Shown: positions 3,254-58,305, counted from the first letter of the stretch. The stretch is 64,000 bases of DNA from an uncultured Acidobacterium sp. (GCA_964513235.1 CAZEMI010000295.1:2390-66389), one strand, 5' to 3'. Made by a program: numbers and translations. Notes: generated by a model from the letters alone, not told the origin.

Positions 3254-3643
3254 ATGGTGAAGACCTACGGGCTGACCCACGTGGCGGTCGCCGTCCGCGA
3301 TCTCGACCGCACCGAAGCATTTTATGGCGGGATCCTGGGCGCGAAAGTGGTGTATCGCGATGCCGGATTCCTGCAGATGCAGACGCCCGGGTCGCGTGAC
3401 GTGCTCGTGTTCGAGAAGGACGCGAAGAAGGCTGGCAAAGCCGGCGGCGTGCTGCACTTCGGATTCCGGCTGACGAAGGAGAAAGACATTGCCGCCGCGC
3501 GCGAAGCGGTGAAGAAGGCCGGCGGCACGATCATCGACACCGGTGAATTCGTTCCAGGTGAGCCGTACTTGTTCGCGAGCGATCCCGACGGCTACACGAT
3601 CGAGATCTGGTACGAGATCCCAACAGCGGTGGATCCGAAATAG
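3254..3643 (+). CDS. VOC (glyoxalase/bleomycin-resistance/dioxygenase) family protein
   Basis: I trimmed ORF 3008..3643 to the ATG at 3254 (MVKTYGLTHVAVAVRDLDRTEAFY...), which is a typical VOC N-terminus. The longer reading would overlap the divergent permease gene. Confidence 0.8.
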   Translation: MVKTYGLTHVAVAVRDLDRTEAFYGGILGAKVVYRDAGFLQMQTPGSRDVLVFEKDAKKAGKAGGVLHFGFRLTKEKDIAAAREAVKKAGGTIIDTGEFVPGEPYLFASDPDGYTIEIWYEIPTAVDPK

Positions 3644-3725
3644 CGATGGATCGCGCGACTGGCGATCGGATGCGCCGCAGTCACTTTGGCTCGGCCGCGT
3701 CGGGCGCCTCTTAGGACGAATAGGT
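3497..3725 (+). repeat. Left copy of an imperfect direct repeat (VOC 3' end + degraded start of a small membrane-protein gene)
   Basis: Core 3565-3650 matches 58082-58167 at 82 of 86 positions (counted by hand). Flanking similarity is weaker. This copy carries two deletions relative to the right copy downstream of the stop codon. Confidence 0.8.
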
Positions 3726-3754
3726 CGAGCTTTGCACACTTCTGCATAGGACTT

Positions 3755-3780
3755 GTTCGCATCTCACCCGTTCGGCGTTT
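3755..3780 (+). promoter_or_regulatory. GTTCGY-N14-GCGTTT motif, site a
   Basis: GTTCGCatctcacccgttcgGCGTTT; it ends 81 nt before the ATG at 3862. Confidence 0.45.
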
Positions 3781-3861
3781 CGTAGATGGGACGGACTAGG
3801 CTCCCCCCGACGCCGTTAGCAGTCACAAGTCAAAGAAACGGCGAGAAAGGCGGAGGACGCG

Positions 3862-4125
3862 ATGCCGTCCGATTGGAACCCGCCGCCATCACGTCTGCTC
3901 GTCCGGGAAGATCTGGTGGAGCGGTTATCTAAGAACTTGATAGTCAGCCTGGAGGACGACCCGGTGGAAGCCTGGGCCAAGCGGAGAATCTGGAGGACCC
4001 TGCACTCGCGCAGCGACCTCGTTGCGGGCGCTCGCGAAGGGCGAGCCGACTCCCGCGAGGCGCCCGTCGTGAACTTGCGGCGGTGGCGTCGCGACCAGCT
4101 ATACGAGCGCCGGAGCTCTGAGTGA
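3862..4125 (+). CDS. Putative antitoxin (assigned by position only)
   Basis: 87-aa ORF preceded by GGAGGA. Its TGA stop overlaps the ATG of the downstream PIN gene (ATGA). I recognised no family from the sequence. Confidence 0.45.
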   Translation: MPSDWNPPPSRLLVREDLVERLSKNLIVSLEDDPVEAWAKRRIWRTLHSRSDLVAGAREGRADSREAPVVNLRRWRRDQLYERRSSE

Positions 4126-4601
4126 TAGGGCCCACCCGAATCCCCCCACGGGTGGCCCTCGATACCGGCGTTCTTGCAAGCGCGGAAGGTCTTCACGGCC
4201 AGCGCAAGCAGACGGTCGCACAGGAATTGATCCGCAAACTGCCCAAGGACGCCACTATTCTGCCCGTACAGGCCCTGGGCGAGCTCTGCCATTTGCTCGT
4301 GGACAAGGCCCACCGCTCACCCGAAAGCGCGCGTGTCTCGATCTTGCACTGGCACGAGACGTTCCCCGTCGCCGGCACGTCCGATAATGTGTTGCTCGAA
4401 GCAGCGCTCGTGGTTACGTCGCGCAGGATCAGCATCTGGGAAGCGGTGATGGTCGCTGCCGCCAGCAACGCCGGCTGCCGGCTCCTGCTGTCTGAGAACT
4501 ACGCTCACGAATTCACCTGGGCCGGCGTCACAGTGGCGAATCCCTTCGCCAACCCCCGGCACCCGATTCTCGACAATCTGCTGAAGCTGTCCGATCGCTG
4601 A
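4122..4601 (+). CDS. PIN-domain ribonuclease toxin (VapC-like)
   Basis: 159 aa. The N-terminal ..VALDTGVL.. acidic motif and later conserved acidic/Ser-Thr positions (SIWEAVMVAAA, LLLSEN) fit the PIN fold. It is translationally coupled to the upstream small ORF. Confidence 0.65.
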   Translation: MIGPTRIPPRVALDTGVLASAEGLHGQRKQTVAQELIRKLPKDATILPVQALGELCHLLVDKAHRSPESARVSILHWHETFPVAGTSDNVLLEAALVVTSRRISIWEAVMVAAASNAGCRLLLSENYAHEFTWAGVTVANPFANPRHPILDNLLKLSDR

Positions 4602-4669
4602 CAGCCGAGTCGCACCCCGCGATAAGCGGATTAGGACCGGGCTTGGAATGCACGGCCCGAAAGGCGGGA

Positions 4670-4715
4670 CATTCCCAAGGGGCGCCGGTCATCTGCCAGC
4701 CGCCCCCTGGGAATG
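4670..4715 (+). terminator. Imperfect hairpin downstream of the PIN gene
   Basis: cattcccaagggg ... cccctgggaatg, with one bulge and a 21-nt loop. There is no T-tract. Confidence 0.3.
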
Positions 4716-4849
4716 CTGTGGGCCCCTACTGACTCAGAGGCCCGAACTGCAGGACCACCTGTGGTGAGTTCTCTCCTTTCTCTCGACTGCAGAACTACTG
4801 CTCCTGTCCGCCGCCTTCCGCCGAGTTTTCCGGACGGTCGATGGAGGGT

Positions 4850-4881
4850 CCCGGCAGTGCCAGTCGTACGGCACTGCCGGG
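4850..4881 (-). terminator. Perfect 12-bp GC-rich hairpin just 3' of the giant gene
   Basis: cccggcagtgcc-agtcgtac-ggcactgccggg, 13 nt after the TAA stop (4895-4897, minus strand). The U-tract is weak. Confidence 0.5.
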
Positions 4882-4894
4882 AAGTCGGGGGGAG

Positions 4895-7800
4895 TTATTG
4901 CGGTCCGAAGGTAATCACGAGTTGCGGAGCGACGGCGCCTTCGCGGCTCGACAACGACTGCTCCGGACCCGCGGCGGCGCCTTCCGAGCCGTCGCGAATC
5001 AGGAAGCCGTGCGCCGCGTTCAGCGAGTACATCTCCTGGACCAGGGTGGTGACGGTCCATGCACGCAATCCGGTGCCCGACGCCGCCGACGGCGAGGTCG
5101 CCACCGTGCCAGCCGCGGCCGGCTGATTGCTCCAGGTCACGGCGTTCTCCGCCCACGCCGCGGCGACGCGCATCGCGCGCAGCGTGCGTCCGTTCACCGC
5201 GGACATTGACTCGACCCGCAGCGTCGCTGACTGCACGGCGCACCCCTGCGGCGCCTGCGGCAGCGAGAAGTTGATCAACGCGCGCGCGTTGGCGCTGCCG
5301 TTCTTCGACCGGACCTGCAAGGACGAGTCGTCACCCTTGTTCTGCGACGGGCTGCCCTGGTCGATCCACGCATCCGCTATCGCGCTCAGCGTCACCGGCG
5401 CGCCGCAGTTGATCGGCGCCACCGTCCACGAGGACGAGGCCGGCGATGCGTCGATGTTGCCGACCGCATCGATGGCCCGCACCGCGAAGGTGTGCTCGCC
5501 GAGCGACAGGTTCGAGTACGACGCCGGCGACGTGCACGCGCCATAGGCGCCGCCGTCGAGCGAGCACTCGAAGGTCGTGTCAGGCTCGTTGGTCTCGAAC
5601 GAGAACGTCGCGGAGGTCGCGATCGTGCTCGCCGTCGGTGCCGACGTGATGGTCGTGTCGGGCGCCGTCGTGTCGAGCGGCGCGATCGTCCAGGTGTAGC
5701 TGGCCGGCGTCTGGTCGACGTTGCCCGTCGCATCGATGGCGCGGACGGACCACGTGTGCGGGCCGTGGCTCAGGCTCGTGTAGCTGACCGTCTGCGCGCA
5801 CGGCGCGAACGGCGCGGCGTCGAGGCTGCACTCGAAGGTCGCACCCGGATCGTTCGAGGCGGCGGTGAACGTCGCGCTCGTCACGGTAGAGGTCGCCGGC
5901 GGCTGCTCGACGATGCCGGTGGTCGGCGGCGTGAGGTCGATCAGCCACTCGTAGTCGTCCGGCGTGGCGTCGGTCAATCCGGCCGATCCAGTCGCGCGGA
6001 CCCGCACCTCGTGGAGGCCTTCGGCCAACCCGGTGTAGGTGACCGGCGACGTGCACGGCGCGAACGTCCCGAAGTCGAGCGCGCATTCGAACGTCGACCC
6101 CGCTTCGCTGGCCTCGAAGGTGAGGGTGGCGCTGGTCGCGCCGGTCGCTTCGAGGATGATGCCACCGGGTCCGTCAAGCGGACCGGTGAGGATGACTGTC
6201 TCCGGCGGCACGCCAATCGTCCAAGTGGCGGAGGCTGGGGAGGCGTCCGTGTTACCCGCCGCATCTACGGCGCGGACCGCGAACGTGTGAGTCCCTCCCG
6301 CAAGCCCCGCCAGCGTGGACGGCGAGCTGCACGCAGCAAATGCTGCCGCGTTCAGCGCACACTCGAACGTGCTGTTGGCCTCGGTGGCCGTGAACGTGAA
6401 CGTCGCGTCAGTGGCGGTCGTCGTTCCCGACGGCGCCGACGTCATCGACGTCTCGGGGGCGATGGTGTCGGCCGCCGCCGAGATCGACCAGTCGTAAGTC
6501 GCTGCGGTCGCATCGGCGAAGCCTGCGGAATCGACCGCGCGCACCGCGAAGGTGTGGTTACCCGAACTCAGTCCGGTGAGCTGGACCGGCGAGCTGCACA
6601 CGGCGAACGCCGCGCCGTCGAGCGAGCACTGGAACGTCAGTGGCGCCGCGCCGTTGTCGGTCGCCGAGAACACGAACGTCGCGTCGGCGGTATCGCTGAT
6701 TGCGGCCGGACCGGCATCGATCACTGTTTCCGGCGCCTGCTCCACCGTGAAGGTGTGGCTGGCCGGCGTGCCGTCAACGTTGCCCGCCTCGTCGATGGCG
6801 CGCACCTCGAAGGTGTGCGTGCCGACCGCCAGGCCGGAGATCGCCTCAGGCGAGCCGCACAGTTCGAACATGGCGCCGTCGAGGCTGCACTCGTAGGTCA
6901 GCGCCTCGGCCGGCGATGTCGCGTCGCTGCCGCTGAACGTGAACGCGGCGTCGATCGCGAGCGAGACCAGCGCCGGACCTGAGACGATCGTCGTCTCAGG
7001 CGCGGTGGCGTCGGACACCACGGTCCAGGTGTAGTCGGCCGGCGTCGCGTCGGCGTTGAGCGACGCATCGGTGGCGCGGACGAGCAGGGTGTGCTCACCG
7101 AGCGCCAGCGCCGTGAGCTCGAGCGGCGACGCGCAGCCGCTGAACGCCGCGCCGTCGAGCGCGCACTCGAAATCGAGATCCGCCACCGGCGCGTTGTCGG
7201 TGCCGGTGAAGATGAAGCTCGCCGTCGTGGCCGTGCCCAGGGCGGCCGGACCCGAAACAATCTGCGTATCGGGCGCCGCAATGTCGAGGATCTCCCAGGC
7301 GTAAGTCGCCGCGATCGCCTCGACCAGGAGGTTGGCCTTGTCGGGCTGCACCTCGAAGCTGCGGGCGCCCGGCAGCAGGCCGATGTAGGTCACCGGCGAC
7401 GTGCAGAACTGCGGCGCCCCGCCATCGAGCGTGCACAGCGCCAGCGACGCCGGATCGTCGATCGTGAAGGCGAACGTCGCGGTCGTCAGCTCCGTCGACC
7501 CGGCCACGCCGAGTGCATCCGCCTCTCCAGCAGGGCCCGAGATGATCGTGACCACCGGCGGCGTCATGTCGCCGGTCTGCCAGCTGTAGCTGGCCGGCGA
7601 TTCATCGATGATGCCCGCCGCGTTGACCGCGCGGACGTCGAGCTGATGCTCGCCGTGCGGCAGGTCCGTGAACGTCACCGGCGAGGTGCACGCCACGAAC
7701 GGCTGCGCCAGGTCGAGCGAGCACTCGAACGTCACGTTCGCCTGCGTGGAGGCGAACGTAAAGGTTGCCTCCGTCGCCTCACTTTGCGCCGCCGGGCCGG

Positions 7801-10800
7801 ACGTCACGCTCGTTTCCGGCACGCCGCCGGCTGTGAACGAGATGGTGGCCTCCGTCGGATCGACGTGGCCTGCCGAGTCGAGAGCGCGCACTGCGAGGGT
7901 GTGCGTCCCCTCGGCGAGGTCGACGGTCTCCAGTTCATACGGCGTGCTGCAACCCTCGAACGCGCCGTTATCGATCGAGCATTCGTAGCTCAAGTCGAGC
8001 GGCGGCGTCAGGTCGTCGGTCCCCGTGAAGAGGAACTGGAGGATCGGGCTCTCCCCAGGCACCCCTGGCAGCGGCGTCATCGAGACGATCGTGGTCTCCG
8101 GCGGGAGGCCGACCTCCCACGTATAGACCGCGGGCGTCGGATCCACGGTGGACGCCGGTAACCCGTCGACCACGCCCAGGGTCACGAGCGCCTGGACCTC
8201 GAATTCATGCGGACCTTCGAGGAGCCCAACCACCACCCACGGCGAGGTGCAGGGCGTCGGGCCATCGCCGTCGAGGAAGCACTGGAACGTGGCGCTCGGT
8301 TCCGGACTGGAGAACGTAAAGGTCGCCGTGGCCGCTCCGCTTGGGCTCGCGGGACCCGACACGATCGCCGTGTCGGGCGCGCCGATAACCGTCCACGAGT
8401 AGCTGGCCGGCGAGGCGTCCGTATGGTTGCCCGCGTCAACGGCGCGGACCTGCAGGGTGTGCGCGCCCGGCGCGACGGTGAGGTCGTAGGGCGAATCGCA
8501 CGCCGAGAAGATTCCGCCGTCGAGCGCGCACTCAAACGTCGTGTTGAACTCCGTCGCGACGAAGACGAAGGTCGCCTGCGTCGCCGCGGTGGTGGCCGGC
8601 GGGCCCGCCACGATCACCGTATCCGGCGGCACCGTGTCGAGCGACGGATCGATGATCCAGGTGAAGACCTCGAGCATCGACTCGATGTTGCCGGCCGCGT
8701 CGATGGCCCGGACCTGGAAGATGTGGGTGCCGGCCGCCAGGCCGCTCACCGTGTAGGGCGACGTGCACGCAGCGAAGGCGAATCCATCGAGTGAGCATTC
8801 GAAGCGCACGCCCGGCTCGGGGACGCTGACCTCGAAGCTGAAGGTCGCCGTCGTCGCCTCCGTCTCACTCGGCGGCCCGGAGAGAATCGTTGTCTCCGGC
8901 GCGGTCACATCGAGGAACGTCCACGTGCGGGTAGCTGGCGTCGCGTCGGCGTTGCCCGCAAGGTCGACCGCGCGCACGGCCAGCGTGTGCTCGCCGGGCA
9001 GCTCGAGGTCGGTCAGCGCGGAGATCAAATCGAGCGTGTGCGGCGACGAGCACGACAGGAACGGCTCGCCGTCGAGCGAGCACTCGAAGGCCAGATCGAG
9101 CACCGGGGTCCGGTTGTCGGTTCCCGCGAACTCGAACAGCACGGTGACCGACGCGTTCACTCCCGACGGCCCCACGCTGATGACGGTCTCCGGAGCCGTT
9201 ACGTCAGGCGGGAGCGTCACCGTCCACGTGTGGACGGCCGGGGTCTGGTCGGCGAACCCGTAAGTGTTCGTCGCCTGGATCTCGAACTCCTGGGTGCCGT
9301 CGATCAGCCCGCGGGCCTCGAAGGGCGATACACAGGAAGCGAACGGCGCGCCGTTGAGCGAGCACTGGAACGTGGCCGGCTGATCCGAGCTGAACACGAA
9401 CGTCGCCGTGTCGCTGCCGCTGGGCGAAGCCGGCGCGACCAGGATCGTGGTCTCGGGTTCACTGACGACCGTCCAGGTATAGCTGACCGGCGCACCGGTG
9501 ACGAGGGCCTCGTTGACCGCGCGCACCTGGAACGTGTGTTCGCCAGGCAGCAGGTCGCCGTAGACGGCCGGCAAGTCGCAGGCCTCAAACGGCAGGCCGT
9601 CCAGCGAGCACTCAAAGGTCGCCAGCGGATCGGTAGCCGAGAAGCTGAACGCCGCGTCGGGACTCCCGGAAATGGCCGCCGGACCGGCCAGCAGCGTCGT
9701 CACCGGACCGGTCGTATCGAGCTGGATCGTCCAGGCGTAGCTGGCCGTCGGACCGACGTTGAGCGCCTCGTCGATGGCCCGCACCTGGAACTGGTGCGCG
9801 CCCTCCAGCAGGTCGTTGTACACGGCCGGCGACACGCACCCTTCGAACGCGCCGCCGTCGATCGCGCACTCGAACAACGTCGCGAGCGGATCGGCAGACG
9901 CGAAGGCGAAGATGGCGTCGGTGCTGGCCGTCACAGCGGCCGGACCCGACTGGATCGTCGTCGTCAGCGCGATGCCGGCGGCGTCGACCGTCCAGGTATA
10001 GGTAGCCGGCGTGGCGTCGACGACGCCCGCCGTGTCGACGGCGCGCACGCGGAACATGTGGCTGCCGACGGCGAGGTCGCTGTAGGACACCGGCGCGGTG
10101 CATGCGGCGAACGGCGCGGCGTCGAGGGCGCACTCAAAGGTCGCGGCCCGGTTCGACGACACGTTGAACGTCGCGCTCGTGCTGGTGGTGCTCAGCGTGG
10201 GACCCGACAGGATCTGCGTATCGAGCAGCGTCGTGTCGGCCAGGATCGTCCAGCCATACCGCGCCGGGGTCGGGTCGGCCGTCCCCGAGGCGTCGAGCGC
10301 CCGCACGTCGAACGTGTGCGTCCCGAGCGCCAGGCCGGCATACGACGCCGGCGATGTGCAGGCCGCGAAGGCCGCGCCATCGAGCGCGCACTCGAACGCC
10401 GTGCCGAGCACCGACTGGAGCTCGAACGTGGCGCTCGTGCTGGTCGTGGTCAGCGTCGGACCGGACAGGATGGCCGTGTCGAGAATGACCGTGCCTGGCT
10501 GCGTCTGGATCGTCCAGGTGTAGCTGGCAGGAGTCGGGTCCTCGTTGCCGAGCGCATCGGTGGCGATGACCTGGAAGGTGTGGAACCCATCCGACAACGC
10601 CTCGAGGCTCACCGGCGACGTGCACAGCGCGAAGCCGGCCCCGTCGAGCGCGCATTCGAACGTCGCGGGCGCCGCGGTCGCGGTGAACGTAAACGTCGCG
10701 CTCGTGGTGGCGGTGACGCTCGCCGGGCCCGAGGTGATCATCGTGTTGACCTGGTCGGCGACGCCGATGATCGTCCACGTGAAGCTGGCCGGCGTGGGAT

Positions 10801-13800
10801 CGACGTTGAGGACCTGGTCGATCGCCCGTACCTGGAAGGTGTGGGCCCCTTCGGACAGCTGGACGTACTCGACCGGCGAGCTGCAGCCCGCGTAGGGCAA
10901 GCCATCGAGCGAGCACTCGAAGGTCGCCGCCTCGTCCGCCACGAACGCAAACTCGGCCGACGATGCGACCGTCAGTGCCGCGGGACGGCTCACGATGGTG
11001 GTGTTCGGTGCGATCCGTTCCGCCGGATCCATCGTCCACGAGTAGGTGGCGGGCGTCGTATCGGGGCCGAGCGTCGTGTGGATCGCGCGCACCTCGAGCG
11101 TGTGCGGTCCCGGCTGCAGGCTGCCGAGCTCCTCGGTGTAGTAGAGCGGCGTCCCGTTCGGGCCGAGCACCGCCGCTCCGCAAGACTCCGGCGCGCCGCC
11201 GTCGAGCGTGCACTCGAAGGTCACTTCGGTGCTGTTCGACGAGAACGTGAAGGCCGCTTCCGAGCTGGCTGTCACCGCCGGCGGACCAGACAGAATGATC
11301 GTGTCGGGCGGTCCACTGAGGGCATCGACGAACCAGGTGTAGGACTCAGGCGTCGCGTCGACGTTCCCCAGCGCGTCGGTCGCCCGCACGGCGAAGGTAT
11401 GGCTGCCGACGGCGAGGCCGGTGTAGGTGGCCGGCGAGAAGCACTCGGCGAACGGAGCGCCGTCGAGCGAGCATTCGAACGTCGCGAGCGGCTCCGGTTC
11501 CCCGGTCACCCCATCGAACGCCGAGAACTCGAACGTGGCATCCGCCAGCTCCGTGAGCGCCGCCGGACCGTTGTCCAGCGACGTCCGCGGCGCCGCCAGG
11601 TCGGGCGACACGATGTCCCAGTTGTAGTCGGCAGGCGTCGGATCGGTGATGCCGGCCGGACTGGTGGCGCGCACCTGGAACTCGTAGGTGCCGGGCAGCA
11701 AGCCGACGTACAGGTGCGGCGAGCTGCAGGGCGTCCACTGCCCGAATTCAACGAGCTGCGTCACCGGATTCAGAATGCCGATGATGCAGGCGAAGGTCGC
11801 GCCGGCGGTGTCCGACGAGAACGAGAACGCCGCGGTGGTCGAGGTGGTGTTCTCGAGGGCGCCAAGCTGCGTCGGCCCGAGATCGAGCGGACCGAGGTCG
11901 ATGGTCGTCTCCGGCGCGGCGCCGGGTCCGGCGATCGTCCAGGTATAGCTGGCCGGCGTCGGATCGGGGTTGCCGGACCAGTCAACCGCATACACCGTGA
12001 AGGTGTGCGTGCCCGTCACCAGATCCTGGTAGTTGAGCGGCGCGATGCAGGTATTCGGGATCGCCCCGTCCAGCGCGCACTGGAACGTCGCGTTCGGCTC
12101 GGTGGCGCTGAACACGAAGGTCGCGCGCGACGAGCCGGTGACGAGCGTCGGTCCGGTCGTGATGATGGTGTCGGGCGCCGTGACGTCGGTACCTTCCACC
12201 ATCCACTGGTAGCTCACCGGTTCGCCGGCGTTACCCGCGGCATCAGCCGCGCGCACCGCGAACACGTGCGGGCCAGCGACCAGGTCGAGATACGTCGCCG
12301 GCGACGTGCAGGTCACGAACGGCCCGCCGTCAATCGAGCAGCCGAAACTGGCGCCCGCCTGGTCGGCCGAGAAGGTGAATGTGGCCGTCGCGTCGGCGGT
12401 CGTTGGCGCCGGCGCCGATTCGATGACCGCCACGGGCGCGACAAAGAGGATCCACGGGTAAGTCGCGGGCGTCGGGTCGGCGTTGAGCGCCTGGTCCACG
12501 GCGCGGACCTGGAGCGTGTGCGTTCCGACGCCGGCCACCGTGACGCTGAGCGGCGACGCGCAGGGCGCGAACGCCGCGCCGTCCACGGCGCATTCGAACG
12601 TCAGGAGCAGCGCGGGCGTCGCGTTGCCGTCGTTGCCGGCGAACGTGAACTCCACCGTCGCGTCCAGGGTCCCGCTGGCCGGCGGGCCTGTGACGATCGC
12701 CGTCTCTGGCGCCGTCGTATCCGCGGCGTAGGTCCACGTGTGAGTGGCCGGCGTCGGATCGATGTTGTCGGTCGGCGTTTGCGTTCCCGTGCCGCCCAGT
12801 CCCTCGTCGATCGCCCGCACCTCGAACGTGTGCTGGCCGGGCGCAATCAGCGGGAAGGCCTCGAACAGGTTGAACGGGCTGATGCAGCTCACCCAGGCGG
12901 TGTTCAGCGTGCTGTCCAGCCGGCACTCATAGAGCAGCCGGACGGTCGGCGTCATGTTGTCCGTCCCGGTGAACTGGAACATCACATCGCTGGTGTTGTT
13001 CACCGGCACCACCGTCATGATCGTCTCAGGCGGCGCCGTGTCGAGCGACGGGACGACGTCCCAGCCGTATTCGATGGGCTCGACCGACGTGTTGCCGTTC
13101 GCATCGGTCGCGATGATGCGGAACAGGTGCGCGCCGGGCCCCAGGCCCGTGTAGGTCACACCCGACACGCACGGCAGGAACGGCTGCAGGTCGATCGAGC
13201 ATTCGAACGTCGCGCCCGGCACGCTGGCCGTGAACGTGAACATGGCCACCGGGCTGTCGGTCTCGCCACCAGTGGGGAACTCCGCCGGGTCGGTCGGCGC
13301 GATGTACGCCGGGCCCGACGTGATCGTCGTCCAGATGCCCAGGATCGACCACTCGTAGGTCGCCGGCGTCGGGTCGACGTTGCCTTCCAGATCGATGGCG
13401 CGCACCTGGAACACGTGCGGACCGATCTCATGCTCCAGGAACTGGAACAGGGCGCCGGCCGTGGACGACGGCGGCAGCGACGGGTCGAGGAAGCCGCACG
13501 GCGCGAACGACCCGCCGTCGATCGAGCACTGGAACGTGACGTCGGGCTCGTTGGCCGAGAAGATGAACGTCGCCTCGAAGAGCGGCGACACCACGCCCGG
13601 GCCCGAGATGATCGTCGTGTCGGGCGCCACGCCCGACGGCAACAGCGCGATCGTCCAGGTGTAGCTGGCCGGCGTCGGGTCGATGTTCCCCTGCACGTCG
13701 ATGGCGCGCACCTCGAAGGTGTGCGATCCCTCGCTCAGGTTGCTGAAGATCGTCGGGTTCTCGCAGACCTGCGTCTCCCAGGCCGCCGGATCGGTGCTGT

Positions 13801-22657: not shown

Positions 22658-22752
22658 CGTGCGCCTCGTGATGTTCGATCTGGCGGGACGCGGTGCTTGG
22701 CGACAGCGCGTCCCGGCGTTAGGCTGAACCGAATTCTTTGTCCATGTCTCGG

Positions 22753-22778: not shown

Positions 22779-22866
22779 GATCGACGCGCGTTTTTTGCTT
22801 GCGTTGTGTGGAGTGGAGGTCGCGCGGCGAGCGATGCGCGATGCGAGCAGACGCCTGCGTCCCGTG

Positions 22867-23236: not shown

Positions 23237-23247
23237 GCGACCGGCGG

Positions 23248-38830: not shown

Positions 38831-38877
38831 GGCCCAGGCGAGGAGAGCGGCGGTCGCGACCGTGATCAGTGTGGGGC

Positions 38878-40458: not shown

Positions 40459-40471
40459 GGTGCGGAAAGCA

Positions 40472-41836: not shown

Positions 41837-41837
41837 G

Positions 41838-44404: not shown

Positions 44405-44406
44405 GG

Positions 44407-47887: not shown

Positions 47888-47938
47888 GAATTCTTCGTCC
47901 TCGGGGGAGAGCGAAACAGGTGTGTCAGTGCCGGGTGA

Positions 47939-49183: not shown

Positions 49184-49185
49184 CG

Positions 49186-50232: not shown

Positions 50233-50251
50233 GACCGGAAGATCGTGCCGG

Positions 50252-51286
50252 TCACGCGGCCAGGTCGGCGAGCAGCGCCGTCGCGCGGCTGACGTAGGTG
50301 TGCGCGCTCGCAATCGACGCGGCGCGCTCGCGCACGCGGCGAGCCCACCGGTGGTCGCCGAGGAGGCGATCCAGCTTGTCGTCGATCTCGGCTGGGTCGC
50401 GGTAGTAGACGGCCGCGTCATCCTCGGGAAAGAACTCGGCCTGCTCGCGGGTGAAACTGGAGAGCATGACGCCGCCGCCGCCCGGAATTTCGAAGGTGCG
50501 CATGTTATGCCCCGGCATGTTCAAATCGCTCAGCACGTTCAGGCTCACCGCGGCCGCGGCATATGCGGCGGCGCACTGCCGCGCCACGAGCGCACGCGAA
50601 TGCGTGATATGGCGGGTGCCGCTCGCCGCGCGCGTCCAGCGGTTGCCCCACAGCCCGACGGTGTGACGCGTAACGGCGCGGAGATGGGCTTCACGCTTGT
50701 CGGTGTGATTACCGACGAACACCACCGAATGGGCCGGTCCGCAGCTGGCGCAGACGGGGTTCGGCGCGCTGGTCGCGAAGGCAGGGTCTACACCAAACGG
50801 CAAATATGCAGCGGCAACTCCCGTTTGCCTCAGCTGCCGCGCCAGGTCGCGCTGCCAGATCCAGACCCGCGTGTACTCGGCGAGGATCGCCACCAGATCG
50901 CGCCGTTGCGCCGAAGTGTGCCGCGGATCAAGCGGCACGCCGCAGTACGGGTTGTCTGGATAGTAGTTGCCGATCGGGATGCCAAGCGTGTGGCGGATCA
51001 ATCGCACGGTGGCCGCATGCAGGTAGGTCCCCTTGATCACCAGCACGAAGTCCGGACGCGTGCGGCGAATAATCGCCACCGTCTGGGCGTTCATCCGCTG
51101 CCACAGCCACCCGCGCAGCAGCCGCCGCACGGCACGGCATTGCGCGCCGGGCAGGGCGGAGTAATACGCGCGGTCGCAATCGAACCGGCTCACCTGCTTG
51201 CCCAGCCGTTCGAACGCGCGCGCAAAGCTCGCCGCCAGTTGACCTGGGCCCATGGGCCCGATCACCATCACACGATCTGGAGACAT
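50252..51286 (-). CDS. CgeB-like glycosyltransferase (Glyco_trans_1_2-type C-terminal domain)
   Basis: ..NMRTFEIPGGGGVMLSSFTREQAEFFPEDDAAVYY.. resembles CgeB-family proteins (from memory). Confidence 0.65.
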   Translation of the reverse strand: MSPDRVMVIGPMGPGQLAASFARAFERLGKQVSRFDCDRAYYSALPGAQCRAVRRLLRGWLWQRMNAQTVAIIRRTRPDFVLVIKGTYLHAATVRLIRHTLGIPIGNYYPDNPYCGVPLDPRHTSAQRRDLVAILAEYTRVWIWQRDLARQLRQTGVAAAYLPFGVDPAFATSAPNPVCASCGPAHSVVFVGNHTDKREAHLRAVTRHTVGLWGNRWTRAASGTRHITHSRALVARQCAAAYAAAAVSLNVLSDLNMPGHNMRTFEIPGGGGVMLSSFTREQAEFFPEDDAAVYYRDPAEIDDKLDRLLGDHRWARRVRERAASIASAHTYVSRATALLADLAA

Positions 51287-52437
51287 CGTTCAGGTGCCAA
51301 CAGGTTGCGCAGCTCGATCACCAGCCGCGGTGCCACGACCGCCGGCGCGAACGATCGCTCGACGCAGGCCCGGCCCGCCGCGGCGATCGCGCGGCGGCGT
51401 TCGCAATCACGCGCCAGCGCCACGGCCGCCGCGGCAATCTGCGCGTCATGCTCGGCGTGACTGATCGGCGCTTCACGATCCCATTCCAAGCCCTCGGCAC
51501 CCTCCGCGTTGGCGACCACCGGAACTCCGTACGCCATCGCCTCCAGCACTTTCACTTTCATGCCGGTACCGACGGTGGCGGCGTTCACGAGCACCGACAA
51601 CTGTTCGAAGACGACCCGTGGATCGCGGACGTCTTCGATGATCTCGACACCCGCGATCTCGCACTCCTCGCGCAGGTAGCGGCTCGCATCCCAACCGGCG
51701 ACGAGGCAGCGCACGCCGGGCATCTCCTGCCGGATCAACGGCACGATCCGCGACACGAAACGCCGCGCCGCGGCGCGGCTCGGTTCCCAGAACATCGAGC
51801 CGATGAACCCGATTGCCGGCTGGCGCGGCGGCCCCACGGGGTCGTAGAGACCGGCGTCGATGCAGAGCGGAACGACGGACACGCGAGCCGCCGGCGCCAG
51901 CGCGCGTGTCAGGTCGGCCAGCCGGCGCGTCACGACACGGATCCGGCCAATCCGATCGATCGTCATCCGTTCGGCACGCCGCGCGATCAGGCTTCGCCGG
52001 CGATCGGTCAGCGAGTTCCCGGCCTGGAGGTCGACATGCCGCAGGCACTGGACGCTGCACACCACATTGCGGAAGCCCTCCACCGCCCGCCCCGTCGATA
52101 GGTGTTCGGCGAAAATGACGTCCACGCCACGCTGGGCGAGCGACCGCGCCGTGCGGCCGAACTGAGAGGCAGACAATTCCCAGTCGGCACGCCAGGCCGA
52201 GCGGAGCTTTCGCTCGAGGAGCGCGGATGGCTCCGGGGGATCGATGCTCGTGAACGCGATGTTGGTTTCGGCGAAGTACGAGGCCGGCTCCTCGGGCCCG
52301 CGCGATCGGGTGCGCAGATACAGGACGCTGATCTCGTGACCTGACGCATCGAGCGCTCTGAGGAGGGGTCCATAGTAGCGCGAGGCGGTACTGGCCCACG
52401 GATACGGCGACTCGGGCAGGAGAATGAGTATCTTCAT
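51268..52437 (-). CDS. Glycosyltransferase family 4
   Basis: ..MKILILLPESPYPW.., ..GTGMKVKVLEAMAYGVPVVA.. motifs. Start trimmed to the ATG at 52437 (ATGA overlap). Confidence 0.8.
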   Translation of the reverse strand: MKILILLPESPYPWASTASRYYGPLLRALDASGHEISVLYLRTRSRGPEEPASYFAETNIAFTSIDPPEPSALLERKLRSAWRADWELSASQFGRTARSLAQRGVDVIFAEHLSTGRAVEGFRNVVCSVQCLRHVDLQAGNSLTDRRRSLIARRAERMTIDRIGRIRVVTRRLADLTRALAPAARVSVVPLCIDAGLYDPVGPPRQPAIGFIGSMFWEPSRAAARRFVSRIVPLIRQEMPGVRCLVAGWDASRYLREECEIAGVEIIEDVRDPRVVFEQLSVLVNAATVGTGMKVKVLEAMAYGVPVVANAEGAEGLEWDREAPISHAEHDAQIAAAAVALARDCERRRAIAAAGRACVERSFAPAVVAPRLVIELRNLLAPERCLQIV

Positions 52438-53891
52438 GGCTGAAAGACGAGCGCGCGATCGTGACGTCGCAAAATGAGGAACACGCCGGCGGCGCCGACA
52501 ACAGCGCCGCATGCCGCCATCGCGGCGAGAGCCGTGATCACGTTGGTCACGCGCGCTTCAAGGAGACGCTGAACGACCAGCGCCGCCACGACGGCGACGA
52601 TCGCGCCGACCATGGTGCGCAATCTCGATTCGTGACCCAGCGTCAGGAAGGACCGCCGCAACAGGAGCGTCGTGAACCCGACACCCGCGAGCCAGAGTCC
52701 CACCGCGGCGGCAATCGACGTCCCGCCGAGCCACGGATGCAACAGCACGCCGGCGACGCCGGCAATCAACACCCACGCCAGCATCGTCATCGCCGTGAGA
52801 TCGGCCCGGCCGGCGCCTTCGATGACGGCGGCATCGATCGACGTCACGCCGATAATCCCGTGACCGAGCGCCAGCGCCACGAGAATCGGGCCGCCGTGGG
52901 TCCTCATCTCAGGGCCGATCCACACTTCGAAAAAGGCCGGACCCAGCGTGACGAGAGGTAGCGTCAACGTCAGCGACGCGCACAACAGCATGCGGCGCAG
53001 CGTCCCATGCTGGCGGCGCAGCTCGTCGATCTGCGCGGTGGCGTGCAGCGCGCTCGCCCGCGAGTAGAACATCGACGTGGAGACGCCGCCGAGCAGGTTC
53101 ACTCTCGCTGCCAGTTGCGCCGCGACGGCGTAGTGCGCCAGTCCCGTGACCGATCCCACAACTGCGATGATCAGGCGATCGAGCTGCAGCATCATCAGCA
53201 TCGCGATCCGGCCCGTGCACGACCAGCCGCTGAACGCGATCATCTCGGCGAGCCGGGCGCGTTCGAACCGAGGCGCGTGCGACACCCTCGGCAGCGTTTG
53301 CTGCGCGGCGCGCAGTGACAGGAAGAGCGTGGCGATCGCCACCAGCAAATTGGCGGCGATCGCCGCGGTCAGCGACGGCTGGATGCGGACCGCCACGATC
53401 GTCGCGAGCGGCAGCAATGCGCTGCCGGCCAGGAGCACGCGGCCGAGGGCGTCGAACCGTTGCTGCGCGCGCAGCAGCGCATGGACCAGACTCGACTGCA
53501 GCGAGAGCGTCACGGCGATGGCGGCGAGCGCCACCACGAGGTCGAGCTGCCGCGGGAGGCGCGCGCCGGCCAGCTGCGCGAGCGATGGCGTCGAGATCAT
53601 CGCCACCACTCCGGCGGCAATCCCAATGCCCAGCAGCACCCCGGCTGTCGTGTGGAAGCGTGACGCCAGCATCGCAGTTCGGCCATGCGCCAGGTCGTCG
53701 GCAAAGTACCGCGTCGATGCCCATGGCAGGCCCAAATCGACATACATGGCGTAAGAAGTGACGGTGACGATCAGCAGGTAGAGCCCGAAGTCGGCGACCC
53801 CGAGGGCGTCAATCAGTGCCGGTGTCACCAGCAGAGTGCCGGCGCCGCCCGCCGCCGCGGCGGTCAGCGACCAGAGGGCGCCGCGCCTCAT
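52434..53891 (-). CDS. Wzx-like oligosaccharide flippase (MOP/polysaccharide biosynthesis protein family)
   Basis: 485 aa with about 12-14 TM segments. The N-terminal ..LIDALGVADFGLYLLIVTVTSY.. is typical of this family. Confidence 0.8.
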   Translation of the reverse strand: MRRGALWSLTAAAAGGAGTLLVTPALIDALGVADFGLYLLIVTVTSYAMYVDLGLPWASTRYFADDLAHGRTAMLASRFHTTAGVLLGIGIAAGVVAMISTPSLAQLAGARLPRQLDLVVALAAIAVTLSLQSSLVHALLRAQQRFDALGRVLLAGSALLPLATIVAVRIQPSLTAAIAANLLVAIATLFLSLRAAQQTLPRVSHAPRFERARLAEMIAFSGWSCTGRIAMLMMLQLDRLIIAVVGSVTGLAHYAVAAQLAARVNLLGGVSTSMFYSRASALHATAQIDELRRQHGTLRRMLLCASLTLTLPLVTLGPAFFEVWIGPEMRTHGGPILVALALGHGIIGVTSIDAAVIEGAGRADLTAMTMLAWVLIAGVAGVLLHPWLGGTSIAAAVGLWLAGVGFTTLLLRRSFLTLGHESRLRTMVGAIVAVVAALVVQRLLEARVTNVITALAAMAACGAVVGAAGVFLILRRHDRALVFQP

Positions 53892-56050
53892 GCCCTGCTC
53901 TCCGCCGGCGGCGGATCGTGATACAGGCCGTATTCGGCGCGGTAATAGCGCGAGTAGTAATAGGCATCGCGCGCCAGGTCGACACGGTTCAGGACGCTGC
54001 CCAGCACGCGCGCGCCTACGGCGTCGAGGCGCTCAATCGCGGCCTGCACGGTGGCGCGGCTCGACATCTCCGAGCCGATCACCAGCAGCACGCCGGCCGT
54101 GACGCGGGCCAGCACGGCCGTGTCGGCCACCGCCATCACCGGCGGCGAATCGAGAACGACCCACTCGTAGTCCTCGGTGAGGCGGCGCAGCGTATCGGTG
54201 AACTGCGCGGTCGCGACCAGCTCCACCGGATTGGGCGGCAACCGCCCGGCGAGAAGCAGCGACAGGCCCGGAACATCGGTGCTGCGGATCGCGTCGGCCA
54301 GCGAGGCCTTGCCCACCATGACGTTGGTCAGGCCGGGCTCGGCGGCCTGCCCGAACAGCTGGTGCAGACGCGGCCGCCGTAAGTCGGCATCGATCAGAAT
54401 CACGCGCGCCCCCAGTTGCGCCAGCCCGACGGCGAGATTGCTCGCCACCGTCGTCTTGCCCTCGTTGGTAATGGCGCTGGTGACCAACACCGATCGTCCG
54501 CGTGGTTGAAAGGGGGAGAACAGCACGTTGGTCTGCACGACATGCAACGCTTCCCGGAACCCCGCGGGCACGTCGCTGCTCACCAGCGGCGCGCCGCGTT
54601 GCTGGGCGGCGGGAATCTCCGGCACCAGTCCGAGAAAGGGCAGGCCGAAACGCTCGCGAATCTCTTCCGGCGACTTGATGCGATCGTCCAGCGCTTCGAC
54701 GCCGACGACGAGCACCAGCGCGAGGAGCATGCCGCCGATGGCGGCGAGCATGATGTTGCGGCCGATACGCGGTGAGACCGGCAGCCGCGGCACTTCGGCC
54801 TCATCGACGATCCGGATGTTGTTCGTGCGCAGCTCGCTCGACACGCCGGTCTCGTTCGCGCGCTGCAGGAGGCTCTGGTAGACCTGACGAGAGCTCTCCA
54901 CTTCGCGCTGGAGGACGCCGTATTCGATCGCCGCCCGGGTCATCGACAGCGCCTCGCGCTTCTGTGCGTCGAGTGCGACGGTCAGGCTCTTTTCCAGGGC
55001 CTCGGCGGCGGCGAACTCGTGCTGCACGGCGCTCGCGATCTTCGCAACTTCCTGATCCAGCCGCGTCTCAGCCTGTGTCACGGCGGCGCCGAGGTTGATC
55101 AGATCAGGATGGCGATTGCCGACCTTCTGCATCAGTTCGCCGTGCTGCCGCTTCAGGGTCAACAGTTCGGCTTTGAGCTGCCGGATGAACGAGTCCGACA
55201 GAATTGCCGGGAACGCATCCAGCGCGGCGGGCTCCGCCGATACTGCGCGGAGCTGGTTGTAGAGCGTCTCTTTCTCGATCCGCACTGTCTTGGCCCTGGT
55301 TACCGCGGTATTGAGGTCGGCGAGCTTCTGCACGACGATGTTCTGTGTGTCGTCGACCGCGATCGCCTGGTTCGCCTCGCGGTAGCGCTGTAAGGCGACC
55401 TCGGCGGCTTCGACTTGCGCGCGCTGCTCGGTCAATCGCTCCGCCAGCCAGCCCGAGGCTTCGCGCGACGACAGCAGCCGGAATTCGAGGTTCTGCCGGA
55501 TGTAACTCTTGGCGTGAGCGTTCACCACGCTCGCCGCGAGCGCGGCATCGGGGGAACGGTAGGTGAGGTCCACAATGCGGCTGTTGCGAACCGGAACCAC
55601 ATCGAGCCCGGCCAGCAAGCGATCGATGGCCACGGCGGCCACGGTGTGATCGACATCAGGCCGGAGGGCTGGATGACTCCATAACGCGAGCGCGTCGAGC
55701 GTCTTCCGGGCCAGGCTTCGGCTCAGCAGGACGTTGTATTGAGTCTGATAGTAATCGGCGCGCGATTGCGTCTCCTCGATGACCTGCTCGAAACTGATGA
55801 CATTGGGGGTGTCGGCCTCGATGAGAATCTTGGCGCGCGCCTCGAAGATCGGCGCGGCCGTAAAGCTGTGCACGGCCGCGCTCAGCAGCACGATGGCAAA
55901 CGCGCTCGACGCGACCCACCGGCGCTTGGAGAGAATTCGGCCATACTCGATCAATCGCGCCGGCTCGAATTGCAGCTCGGTCCACGAGAGGCGCGCCGGC
56001 CCATCGCCTCGCGGCCGTTGCGGCGTCGAATCTGAGGATGTGTTCATCAA
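53888..56050 (-). CDS. Polysaccharide co-polymerase / tyrosine autokinase (Wzc/GumC-like: Wzz domain + coiled coil + P-loop CpsD-like domain)
   Basis: Walker A ..TSAITNEGKTTVASNLA.. and ..ILIDADLRRPRL... The N-terminal TM + Wzz-like region is followed by a long coiled coil. Confidence 0.9.
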   Translation of the reverse strand: MMNTSSDSTPQRPRGDGPARLSWTELQFEPARLIEYGRILSKRRWVASSAFAIVLLSAAVHSFTAAPIFEARAKILIEADTPNVISFEQVIEETQSRADYYQTQYNVLLSRSLARKTLDALALWSHPALRPDVDHTVAAVAIDRLLAGLDVVPVRNSRIVDLTYRSPDAALAASVVNAHAKSYIRQNLEFRLLSSREASGWLAERLTEQRAQVEAAEVALQRYREANQAIAVDDTQNIVVQKLADLNTAVTRAKTVRIEKETLYNQLRAVSAEPAALDAFPAILSDSFIRQLKAELLTLKRQHGELMQKVGNRHPDLINLGAAVTQAETRLDQEVAKIASAVQHEFAAAEALEKSLTVALDAQKREALSMTRAAIEYGVLQREVESSRQVYQSLLQRANETGVSSELRTNNIRIVDEAEVPRLPVSPRIGRNIMLAAIGGMLLALVLVVGVEALDDRIKSPEEIRERFGLPFLGLVPEIPAAQQRGAPLVSSDVPAGFREALHVVQTNVLFSPFQPRGRSVLVTSAITNEGKTTVASNLAVGLAQLGARVILIDADLRRPRLHQLFGQAAEPGLTNVMVGKASLADAIRSTDVPGLSLLLAGRLPPNPVELVATAQFTDTLRRLTEDYEWVVLDSPPVMAVADTAVLARVTAGVLLVIGSEMSSRATVQAAIERLDAVGARVLGSVLNRVDLARDAYYYSRYYRAEYGLYHDPPPAESRA

Positions 56051-56862
56051 AAGTACCTGGTCGGCACCACGATGGTGTCGCCCGATCGAATCGGATCGTG
56101 CAACCGCGCCTTGATTTCGCGCTGCTCGCCGTCGACGGTCCGAATCACGCGTACCCGATTCAACGCGCCCACGTTCGTGGCGCCTCCGGCCAGCGCCAGC
56201 GCCTGCAGCAGCGTCAACTCGCCTGGCACCGGATACCTGCCTGGATTCTTCACTTCGCCGAACACATAGACCGACTCCACGCGCGGCGCGAACACCGTGT
56301 CGCCGTCTTGGAGGGCTACGCTGCGCGACAGACTGTTGGTTTCGAGGTCGCGGACCGCAACGCGGGTCACTTCGCTCCCCTCCACTTGGCCCGGGAGAAT
56401 CGGGCGCGTCGCGCCTGACGACCTCACCACCACAACCTCGCCCGATGCCACGGCGGTCAACGCGCCGGCGCGGGCAATGACCTCGATCAACGTCGTCTCG
56501 CCCGTCAACGGGTAGGCGCCCGGCTGTCGCACTTCGCCGACGACAAACACGCGCTGGCTGCGGTAGTGCTCGACGGCGACGGCCACTTGCGGCGCGTTGA
56601 TGAAACCGTCGGCGAGCAGCCGCTGCAGCTCGCTTTCGAACTGCCGCAGGGTCCGTCCGCCGGCGCTGACGCGGCCGAGCAGCGGAAAACTGAACGAGCC
56701 ATCGGCGTCGACGGCGTAGCGGCTCGAGAGTCCCGCATGGTCGAAGACGCTGATGGCAAGCACGTCTTGCGGCCCAATCAGGTAATCGCGAGGCTGCGCA
56801 GACGCACCACTAGCCGCGACGCATATCAAAGTGAGCACACGAGCGCACCTCATGGCAGTCAT
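56047..56862 (-). CDS. Polysaccharide export outer-membrane/periplasmic protein (Wza-like: Poly_export + SLBB domains)
   Basis: Signal peptide, ..YLIGPQDVLAISVF.. and ..GDTIVVP.. motifs. It is the first gene of the operon. Confidence 0.9.
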   Translation of the reverse strand: MTAMRCARVLTLICVAASGASAQPRDYLIGPQDVLAISVFDHAGLSSRYAVDADGSFSFPLLGRVSAGGRTLRQFESELQRLLADGFINAPQVAVAVEHYRSQRVFVVGEVRQPGAYPLTGETTLIEVIARAGALTAVASGEVVVVRSSGATRPILPGQVEGSEVTRVAVRDLETNSLSRSVALQDGDTVFAPRVESVYVFGEVKNPGRYPVPGELTLLQALALAGGATNVGALNRVRVIRTVDGEQREIKARLHDPIRSGDTIVVPTRYF

Positions 56863-56943
56863 CCGCAGAACGTGAAACCGCGCGGGCTCCGCCCCTCTCG
56901 CTTACATGGTCCTGGAGGGGCGCGGCGCGGCCGTATTCTCCTT

Positions 56944-56969
56944 AAACGCCACGACCGCCCAAAACGAAC
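56944..56969 (-). promoter_or_regulatory. GTTCGY-N14-GCGTTT motif, site i
   Basis: GTTCGTtttgggcggtcgtgGCGTTT on the minus strand; 81 nt upstream of the wza-like ATG (56862). Confidence 0.45.
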
Positions 56970-57012
56970 TGGCGCATTACGCCGTATACTGCTTCGCGTG
57001 CGACTGCACAGA

Positions 57013-58011
57013 ATGAGGGAAGCGATCGGCGTCGCCGTGGTCGGCGCAGTCTGCGCGTGTCAGTCCCCGCAGCCCGCAGCAGCGCCCGGCATCGTCCGCA
57101 TTGACGGCTCGAGCACGCTGTTTCCGCTCACCAGGGCCGTCATCCAGGACTTCACCAAGGAGCGTCACGCACCGCAATTCAGGCTGACGATGTCTGGAAC
57201 CGCTCATGGCTTCGAACAACTGTGCGGCGGCCGGACCGATCTGAGCGCGGCGAGCCGTCCGATTCGCCGCGCGGAGATCGAGGCGTGTCATGAAGCCGGC
57301 GTGACTTTCATTGAGTTGCCGATCGCCTACGACGGAATCGCGGCCGTCGTCCACCCGCGCGCCACGTGGATCGACGACATCACCGTGGAGGAACTCAGGA
57401 TGCTGTGGCACCCCAGCGCGCAGGGTCGCGTCCACCATTGGAGCCAGATCCGGTCGCAGTGGCCGGACCGGGCCGTTCGTCTCTACGGCGCCGACACCCA
57501 GTCAGGCACGTACGATTACTTCACCGCCGCCGTCAACGGCGAGGAGGGCGCGAGCCGTCATGACTTCACCGGCAGCGTCAACGACGACGACGTGGTCGAC
57601 GCCGTTGCCCGCGATGAGCTGGCGTTTGCATTCATACCAATGGCCTACTACGAGAAACATCGGCACCGCGTGAAAGTCGTTGCCGTCAGCGTCGCGGCGG
57701 GGCAGCGTCCGGTCACACCCAGCGCGGACACGATCAGAGCCGGAACCTATCAACCGCTGTCGCGGCCGCTGTTCATCTATGTCCGGAAGCAGGCGCTGAC
57801 CCACGAAGGAATCCCGGAGTTCGTCGACTTTTACCTCTTGGTCGCCGCTCGATTGGCGCAGCGGCTCGGCTACATCTCGTTGGCTCCGCAGGCGTACGAC
57901 CTTGCCGCCGAGCGGCGAAGGGCCCAATGGACCGGAACCATTTTCGGCGAAGGTGGATCGCAGGTCGGGCTCACCATGAACACCCTGCTCGAAAAGGCAC
58001 GGCTGCGCTAA
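57013..58011 (+). CDS. PstS-family phosphate-binding periplasmic protein (orphan, no pstCAB nearby)
   Basis: I trimmed ORF 56566..58011 to the ATG at 57013. Lipoprotein-like N-terminus (VVGAVCAC). ..IDGSSTLFPLTRAV..SGTAHGF..L..GRTDLSAASR.. is typical of PstS/PBP2 proteins. Confidence 0.75.
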   Translation: MREAIGVAVVGAVCACQSPQPAAAPGIVRIDGSSTLFPLTRAVIQDFTKERHAPQFRLTMSGTAHGFEQLCGGRTDLSAASRPIRRAEIEACHEAGVTFIELPIAYDGIAAVVHPRATWIDDITVEELRMLWHPSAQGRVHHWSQIRSQWPDRAVRLYGADTQSGTYDYFTAAVNGEEGASRHDFTGSVNDDDVVDAVARDELAFAFIPMAYYEKHRHRVKVVAVSVAAGQRPVTPSADTIRAGTYQPLSRPLFIYVRKQALTHEGIPEFVDFYLLVAARLAQRLGYISLAPQAYDLAAERRRAQWTGTIFGEGGSQVGLTMNTLLEKARLR

Positions 58012-58012
58012 C

Positions 58013-58305
58013 GGCGCGCCAGGCCGTGAAGACCGCGGGCGACAAGACCACCGACACCGGAGAATTCATCCCGGGTGATTCGTACTTGTTCGCGAGCGAA
58101 CCCGACGGCTACACGATCGAGATCTGGTGCGAGATTCCAACACCGGTGGATCCGAAATAGCGATGGACCCTGCAACGCTGGCAAGCGCTTCGATCTGGCT
58201 GGCGATGATCGTGCTCGGCGGATTCGCGATCTACCGGGTCAGGACCCGCCGCAGCCATATCGGCTCCGCGGCAGCGGGCACCGTTTACGACATCATTCAG
58301 GACGA
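58013..58305 (+). repeat. Right copy of the imperfect direct repeat (VOC 3' fragment + start of the small membrane-protein gene)
   Basis: Core 58082-58167 matches 3565-3650 at 82 of 86 positions. Confidence 0.8.
58020..58160 (+). pseudogene. 3' fragment (last ~47 codons) of a VOC/glyoxalase gene paralogous to 3254..3643
   Basis: ARQAVKTAGDKTTDTGEFIPGDSYLFASEPDGYTIEIWCEIPTPVDPK aligns with AREAVKKAGGTIIDTGEFVPGEPYLFASDPDGYTIEIWYEIPTAVDPK. No N-terminal part is present, because the PstS-like gene ends at 58011. Confidence 0.75.

Follow-up and report, generated by a model that had tools for sequence, protein, structure and literature searches.

The subject of this analysis is a stretch of 64,000 nucleotides from an uncultured Acidobacterium sp. 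(GCA_964513235.1 CAZEMI010000295.1:2390-66389; one strand, 5′ to 3′, hereafter the window, with positions counted from its first letter), in which about 54.3 kb of inserted DNA (3718..58013) lies exactly at the junction between a gene for a VOC (glyoxalase-fold) protein and a small membrane-protein gene. This block has no counterpart in 10 related contigs, as judged from blastn synteny (L002-L006 and L092) and from gene tables (L088-L091). It is bounded by direct repeats that are copies of one target segment, the redundant parts of those copies have decayed reciprocally, and there is no recombinase gene among the block open reading frames (ORFs) tested. We regard as probable, with modest confidence, a single old insertion accompanied by a long target duplication, after which the duplicated halves decayed reciprocally and the core of the repeats was homogenised. 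An earlier sequence-only reading of the window had noticed imperfect direct repeats bracketing a block of about 54.5 kb, and had offered two interpretations: an element that integrated into the 3′ end of a gene while carrying a surrogate 3′ end, or an old segmental duplication whose two copies decayed reciprocally. As argued below, the insertion stands, and so do the repeats as a duplicated site; the surrogate 3′ end is not supported in the form proposed. The second interpretation best describes the present state of the locus, with the addition that the duplication arose together with the 54-kb insertion.

The case for an insertion begins with the relatives. In all ten related Vicinamibacterales contigs (L002 and L003 from ENA, L004-L006 from GTDB genomes, L088, L089, L090 and L091, and L092 from JGI), the two flanks are joined and the block is absent. 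The conserved order is PTPS, ADOP permease, VOC, with or without the small gene, usually DUF763, and then aldehyde dehydrogenase, NCS1 permease and DHOdh. In four of the ten (L002, L003, L004 and L092) the small membrane gene follows VOC directly, which is the pairing that the sequence-only reading had proposed as a check; in the other six (L005, L006 and L088-L091) the VOC stop abuts the stop of a convergent DUF763 gene and there is no small gene. The empty site is seen in L003, where 7414-10413 matches window positions 702-3665 and 10244-10617 matches 58014-58388. Since the window is placed among relatives with an empty site, it was in the window's own lineage that the block was inserted, and one gain there is more parsimonious than several losses elsewhere. 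Moreover, the duplicated segment includes part of the small gene, and thus the duplication must be later than the entry of that gene into the subclade. By p-distance, the nearest relative is L003 for the left flank (0.109) and L004 for the right flank (0.100), which indicates recombination among these lineages; the flanks were compared over 700-3496 and 58874-62989, respectively, and for the right flank the distance between L003 and L005 is only 0.068. In L002 and L003 (ERZ25039550 and ERZ25039576), conserved genes are broken into short ORFs and the VOC alignment contains single-base gaps; these look like long-read indel errors, so that protein calls from the two contigs are unreliable. The small gene of L004 also contains indels.

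The repeats themselves are easily delimited. A repeat search of the window gave exactly two copies of the direct repeat, 3497-3659 and 58014-58176 (163 nt, 85% identity, 54,517 bp spacing), and a blastn search of 3400-3800 against the whole window found only itself and 58014-58167 (154 nt, 87%, E=6e-46), both of which bear out what had been noticed from the sequence alone. With that E value and just two copies in the window, a chance match can be rejected, as can a larger multi-copy repeat family, the case that the sequence-only reading had named as fatal to its interpretation. Compared base by base, the repeat falls into a pre-core (3497-3563 against 58014-58080), with 16 mismatches in 67 nt (24%), and a core (3564-3650 against 58081-58167), with 4 mismatches in 87 nt and no exact-identity run longer than about 48 nt; the earlier figure of an 86-nt core with four differences was correct to within one base. 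All these segments read on the + strand. The left copy is part of an intact VOC gene (3254..3643, +; 129 aa; Pfam PF00903 Glyoxalase, E=2.6e-14), of which it takes up the last 147 nt. The intactness of this gene, claimed previously, is borne out both by the Pfam match and by more than 100 homologues at 80-97% identity, one of them named as a Vicinamibacterales VOC family protein. Within the left copy, the pre-core (3497..3563) consists of VOC codons that are taken as functional, being 94% identical to L003 with only 3 left-derived changes in 67 nt, and the core (3564..3650) holds the final 26 codons of VOC with their stop, then 2 nt of spacer and the letters ATGGA. The right copy begins 2 nt past the stop (58009-58011) of a PstS-like gene and keeps just the last ~47-49 VOC codons: a pre-core (58014..58080) that is a decayed remnant, here called VOC′, and a core (58081..58167) in which VOC′ ends and the small gene has its start codon region, the ATG coming 2 nt after the VOC stop. 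A 77-aa, ATG-started ORF (57927-58160, +) overlaps the 3′ end of the PstS-like gene, runs in frame through VOC′ and ends at the old VOC stop; it may preserve termination-reinitiation coupling to the small gene, or, the DNA being rich in GC, it may have arisen by chance.

Homology between the two copies does not end with the 163-nt repeat. Beyond the left core lies a degraded start of the small gene (3651..3717, +), in which an internal deletion of ~57-60 nt has removed the membrane helix and which runs into a premature stop. Past this deletion, 3666-3717 aligns to the small gene of L003 (83% over 46 nt) and to the window's own right-hand copy (72% identity), and 0 of 1000 dinucleotide shuffles matched the alignment score in either comparison; the degraded left-hand start that the sequence-only reading had described is therefore real. 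Because homology resumes within the small gene after the deletion, the duplicated segment must be about 278 nt long (58014 to ~58291), with 147 nt from the 3′ end of VOC, the spacer, and ~130 nt from the beginning of the small membrane gene. A stretch of about 170 nt in L003 (10244-10413) matches both window copies, of which the left extends leftward into the native VOC gene and the right extends rightward into the native small gene. Measured against L003, each repeat is thus a full copy of the same uninterrupted piece of the target, and each adjoins native sequence on one side only.

Differences between the two copies were polarised with L002, L003 and L004, and the result is reciprocal. The 16 pre-core differences comprise 12 right-derived, 3 left-derived and 1 ambiguous; the 22 post-core differences (62 aligned nt) comprise 1 right-derived, 11 left-derived and 10 ambiguous; and the 4 core differences split evenly into 2 and 2, with two further core sites shared-derived. 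The right VOC′ is still in frame, with the replacements G10D, I12T, E22D, P23S, D29E and Y39C at positions where 116-120 of 120 homologues agree, some of them at residues invariant in 119-120 of the 120. This fragment has evolved without VOC function. The sequence nearest to it is L003 (83%), as it is for the left copy (94%) and for the degraded left piece of the small gene (83%), and since both decayed pieces are closest to L003, they are decayed copies of this lineage's own sequence. Hence the right-hand fragment is not the VOC paralogue that it had been taken for previously, but a decayed duplicate of the same VOC gene. A foreign or independent paralogue is rejected on the same grounds, namely membership in the same orthologue group and changes at residues invariant across the 120 homologues. 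Both truncated pieces are ~17-25% diverged, and the neutral decay of ~0.18 per site is comparable to the distance of 0.20-0.40 at four-fold sites between the window and L003; the duplication would thus date to roughly the time at which the window's lineage and its nearest sampled relatives diverged.

The core departs sharply from this pattern of decay. Its right copy, although a non-coding remnant, has 2 derived changes in 87 nt where about 15 are expected (binomial P=7e-6), and right-derived changes number 12 of 67 in the pre-core against 2 of 87 in the core (Fisher p=0.001). Both core copies share the codon AGC (Ser28), at which L092, L003, L004 and L002 have ACC and where serine is absent from 118 of 120 homologues. 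Position 58100, one of the core mismatches, is A in the window; in a strain represented in Logan sample SRR10083321 (99.97% identical to the window over 11 kb), contigs L085 and L001 have T, as in the left copy, a polymorphism that could reflect either gene conversion still at work between the repeats or a mutation of very recent date. The two left-hand core mismatches are right-derived and the two right-hand ones left-derived, with the switch between 3612 and 3619. Constraint at the nucleotide level is not evident, since synonymous diversity among close relatives is not reduced in the core (0.26, against 0.24 in the neighbouring segment), and neither a sigma-70-like promoter site that could explain conservation of the right core nor an RNA family was found. 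These observations fit a core homogenised by recombination, through gene conversion in place or through a more recent crossover of the chromosome with a copy carried on an element.

Searches of the block ORFs tested against Pfam, NCBIfam and PHROGs turned up no tyrosine or serine integrase, no transposase, no relaxase and no phage gene, and no recombinase remnants were found in the unknown ORFs or at the block edges, the small ORFs at the left edge included; at the right inner edge stands the PstS-like gene. The absence of integrase, relaxase and transposase had been stated from inspection and agrees with these searches. An RNA gene as an att target is rejected, ARAGORN having found no tRNA or tmRNA in the window and Rfam no credible match at the junctions. 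A transposon or composite transposon can be set aside as well, in view of the lack of a transposase, the absence of inverted repeats between the block ends, and a duplication of ~278 nt rather than 2-15 bp. Nor is the block foreign in composition. Its G+C content is 4-5 points higher than that of the flanks (67.6-68.6% against 63.3%), a difference that comes from amino acid composition; the G+C content at third codon positions (GC3) is 0.78-0.90 both inside and outside, and the tetranucleotide correlation of the exopolysaccharide part with the flanks or with relatives is 0.88-0.94. The profiling of codon and tetranucleotide usage that the sequence-only reading had recommended accordingly reveals no shift in codon usage, and its statement that there was no obvious G+C shift holds for GC3 and codon usage, but not for overall G+C, which does differ modestly.

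The geometry of the two ends, with one complete and one truncated gene at each, points to a single crossover or to a one-step insertion with a long duplication. On the reading that we favour, the island would have entered the window's lineage once, either through a single crossover (Campbell-type) with a circle that carried the target segment or by some other one-step insertion that duplicates a long target. Each copy of the segment would at first have held one gene in full and a truncated piece of the other that served no purpose; these pieces, VOC′ on the right and its small-gene equivalent on the left, would then have decayed by ~17-25%, and the central 87 nt would have stayed 95% identical, most likely via RecA-dependent gene conversion between the repeats. 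What mobility remains would be confined to rare deletion by recombination of core with core. The island would now be immobile and not an active mobile element, and recent mobility is unlikely, as the earlier reading had also argued and as the lack of mobility genes suggests. Several points weigh against this account. Gene conversion does not by itself explain the sharp stop at 3563/58080, because selection acts on the left pre-core too. A more recent crossover between the chromosome and an element with arms that had already decayed would account for the uneven divergence just as well. The estimate of age comes from 67 + 62 nt only and carries a large error. There is no known source for a circle with 54 kb of surface and exopolysaccharide genes and a 278-nt copy of the site, and no related island was found elsewhere. 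Finally, the search for mobility genes was confined to the 64-kb window, and a recombinase encoded elsewhere could act in trans.

That last point leads to a first rival, an integrative element of the site-specific kind known from e14 and phage 21 at icd but now degenerate, in which the 87-nt core would be att, the repeats attL/attR hybrids, and the integrase lost or acting in trans. As expected of att sites, near-identical direct repeats do lie at both ends (87-nt core, 4 mismatches); they are sharply bounded, stand at a gene 3′ end and combine a high-identity core with diverged arms, and the polarity of the core mismatches fits a crossover between 3612 and 3619. A possible toxin-antitoxin pair at one inner edge would be in keeping with such an element, and e14, with icd and the icdC pseudogene, offers a precedent (PMC13626634). 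Against this stand the lack of recombinase, excisionase, transfer and phage genes in the block ORFs tested, an exopolysaccharide cargo that is housekeeping-like with a host-like GC3, and a site that is empty in 10 of 10 relatives and thus is no recurrently used att site. Homology to the target is present on both arms, which derive from the same lineage's sequence, and a surrogate gene end would take one arm only; a contiguous copy of ~278 nt is not a surrogate for one gene end. With no recombinase, a VOC′ from the same lineage and a site unoccupied in relatives, the surrogate 3′ end proposed earlier is, on the same points, not supported as it was stated, and we consider an integrative element of this kind unlikely. 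We have greater doubts about a variant in which the 87-nt core is a working site, the recombinase-less island cycling via RecA or an unlinked recombinase in trans and the complete, decayed target copy acting as a portable homology cassette. Cycling would refresh the core while the arms decay, which would explain the contrast between core and arms, the Ser28 codon in both copies and the polymorphism at 58100.

Two further possibilities do away with the insertion altogether. In one, the block and its repeats are ancestral, and the relatives lost the block by homologous recombination between the repeats, leaving a single hybrid copy that resembles an empty site. Deletion between near-identical 87-nt repeats is mechanistically easy and scarless, and the single copies in the relatives are not distinguishable from deletion products. 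Given the mosaic, star-like relationships, however, several independent losses or a special tree would be needed instead of one gain, and six relatives do not even have the small gene, part of which lies in the duplicated segment; this places the duplication after arrival of that gene in the subclade. Moreover, no relative keeps a close homologue of a block gene (at most 58-71% for the PstS-like protein and 63% for Wzc, against more than 100 homologues at 80-97% for VOC), and the duplicated segment must in any case stem from a single copy. Hence we regard ancestral presence as very improbable. In the other, the source assembly has joined, through the shared core, an empty chromosomal site and a separate 54.5-kb circle or some other locus. 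An independent k=31 assembly of SRR10083321 does break inside the core, with L085 ending at 58110 and L001 starting at 58101, and linkage across the core comes from the source assembly alone. Yet the core contains mismatches and no exact run above ~48 nt, so that ordinary 150-nt reads or pairs span and phase it; both junctions would need complementary errors; the block has no replication or partition genes, which makes a free replicon implausible; and the decayed half-copies match what an integrated duplication predicts. Of everything considered here, an assembly artefact seems to us the most remote.

Comparison with known systems helps to place the favoured reading, an old insertion with a long target duplication. 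In the case of e14 (PMC13626634, citing Hill et al. 1989), icd borders the element at one end and the C-terminal pseudogene icdC at the other, and the two recombine on excision. The likeness of the present locus to e14 and phage 21 at icd in E. coli lies in an intact gene at one end and a displaced C-terminal fragment of that gene at the other; recombination between the two would restore a single chimeric gene. However, e14 has a site-specific recombination system of its own and leaves the chromosome when SOS is induced, whereas no recombinase was found in this block; in addition, homology here continues beyond the gene end and, on the opposite arm, into the next gene, both fragments have decayed heavily, and the site is unoccupied in all relatives sampled. 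Repeat-bounded islands without mobility genes, the “anchored” or degenerate islands that carry exopolysaccharide, capsule or O-antigen loci, resemble it in being large accessory blocks absent from close relatives, with direct repeats from the insertion site, surface or polysaccharide cargo and no evidence of current mobility. They differ in that a short att core is usual among them, whereas the repeats here, at ~278 nt, are of unusual length and duplicate the target in full over two genes; nor does the locus have a tRNA target, an integrase remnant or a bias in codon usage. As for Campbell-type integration, known from Hfr formation and suicide plasmids, the likeness is in an insert between two direct copies of a whole homologous segment, each copy joined to one native flank, with a complete and a truncated gene at each end; the difference is that no plasmid backbone (rep, par, tra) is left here, and it is the geometry alone that suggests the mechanism.

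The contents of the block are taken here from left to right. At its left inner edge are two small ORFs (3862..4601, +; 87 aa and 159 aa) with a 4-nt overlap. Their layout is VapBC-like, as a toxin-antitoxin pair proposed by the sequence-only reading would have it; support from family searches is weak, the sole match being PIN at E=0.0033, under the Pfam cut-off, with no match in NCBIfam, PHROGs or PDB sequences. There follows a gene for a secreted giant of 5,920 aa (4895..22657, −), identified from Pfam searches on three thirds of the protein and from repeat families D1-D9, with beta-helix/NosD and CBM96 modules and more than 30 Ig-like repeats; the latter are diverged units of ~88 aa with 60-80% nucleotide identity. 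Beside it, a 963-aa beta-helix/NosD and CBM96 protein (23248..26139, −; Pfam) shares with the giant not only the beta-helix/CBM96 architecture but also two repeat units. Pfam further identifies a Ser/Thr protein kinase with a PD40 beta-propeller (26551-29601, −), an ECF-type sigma factor (29531-30148, −), a 2,117-aa S8 subtilase with P-domain, TIG and CBM96 domains (31082..37435, +) and a 19-kb Wzx/Wzy-type exopolysaccharide cluster (37490..56862, −), the genes of which include a Wzy-like polymerase, a GT4-family initiating transferase, ~10 glycosyltransferases, a flippase, a Wzc tyrosine kinase and a Wza exporter. Judged by domain content, the block may be a self-contained exopolysaccharide/matrix (biofilm) module that makes and exports its polymer by a Wzx/Wzy-dependent route and includes a secreted S8 protease, to which the ECF sigma factor and the Ser/Thr kinase would contribute its own regulators, and the large secreted beta-helix/CBM96 proteins could bind or modify polysaccharide.

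The last gene of the block is full length and encodes a PstS-family substrate-binding protein (57037..58011, +; TIGR02136, E=2.3e-67). It is divergent from Wza-Wzc (53888-56862), with no pstCAB nearby. Among 5.8 billion proteins, its best non-self homologue is 71% identical, with the same end position, and the next is at most 58% identical; the best non-self homologue of Wzc in the same collection is 63% identical. A 50%-clustered representative library is, by its level of clustering, uninformative on close relatives. The arrangement of Wza, Wzc and flippase with a divergent PstS-like gene recurs in more distant exopolysaccharide loci (57-61% identity), including a JGI contig from sample 3300071358. 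Because this pairing recurs elsewhere, the PstS-like gene belongs to the exopolysaccharide module, and its product seems to be a part of that locus and not a phosphate transporter. The right junction, looked for by exact match in JGI metagenome contigs, was not found there, and the same island was not found elsewhere, the nearest PstS-like and Wzc homologues being 57-71% identical and in different contexts. Nor was a donor found, the nearest exopolysaccharide loci being only 57-63% identical and set in other surroundings.

Outside the block, the left flank reads PTPS (87-524), an ADOP/MacB-type permease (700-3198) and VOC, and the right flank starts with the small gene and a DUF763 gene in truncated form (58391-58864), after which come aldehyde dehydrogenase, an NCS1 permease and a DHOdh-like gene. 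The small gene (58163..58390, +) is intact and is conserved in L002, L003, L004 and L092; its 75-aa product, with one predicted membrane helix, can be read directly as the hydrophobic stretch ASASIWLAMIVLGGFAIY and a charged tail. It differs from L003 mostly at third codon positions, and an identical protein is present in Logan sample SRR10083321. On this side of the block, then, the previous description of the last ~47 VOC codons followed by an intact 75-aa gene was accurate. The gene is itself accessory, occurring only in the subclade of those four contigs. That it might be a mere shadow of DUF763 on the + strand is rejected, as in L004 DUF763 ends at 10621 and the small ORF at 10624, so that the two are convergent. 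The DUF763 gene of the window (58391..58864, −), which lies outside the repeat and forms a second lesion near the junction, is a pseudogene whose Pfam match covers profile positions 1-79 of 319. At its deletion point (58603-58605), ~670-680 nt that eight relatives carry are missing; the junction, GGCG|TGCGCG, has ~2 nt of microhomology, and the Logan strain has the same deletion. In L092 there is no DUF763 gene, and VOC and the small gene are followed by ~65 nt and then aldehyde dehydrogenase. DUF763 appears to be in the course of loss in the window's subclade.

In sum, the locus is an ordinary old, fixed genomic island bounded by direct repeats and no new kind of element. Of the features by which genomic islands are usually recognised, it shows lineage-specific presence, and neither atypical composition or codon usage nor adjacency to a tRNA or tmRNA. 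Its interest is as a clean, datable example of a little-studied soil lineage of Vicinamibacterales (Acidobacteriota) gaining a complete exopolysaccharide and giant-adhesin module, in which the long two-gene target duplication records the geometry of the insertion and the reciprocal decay of its halves serves as an internal clock. Such modules can reach fixation without recognisable mobility genes.

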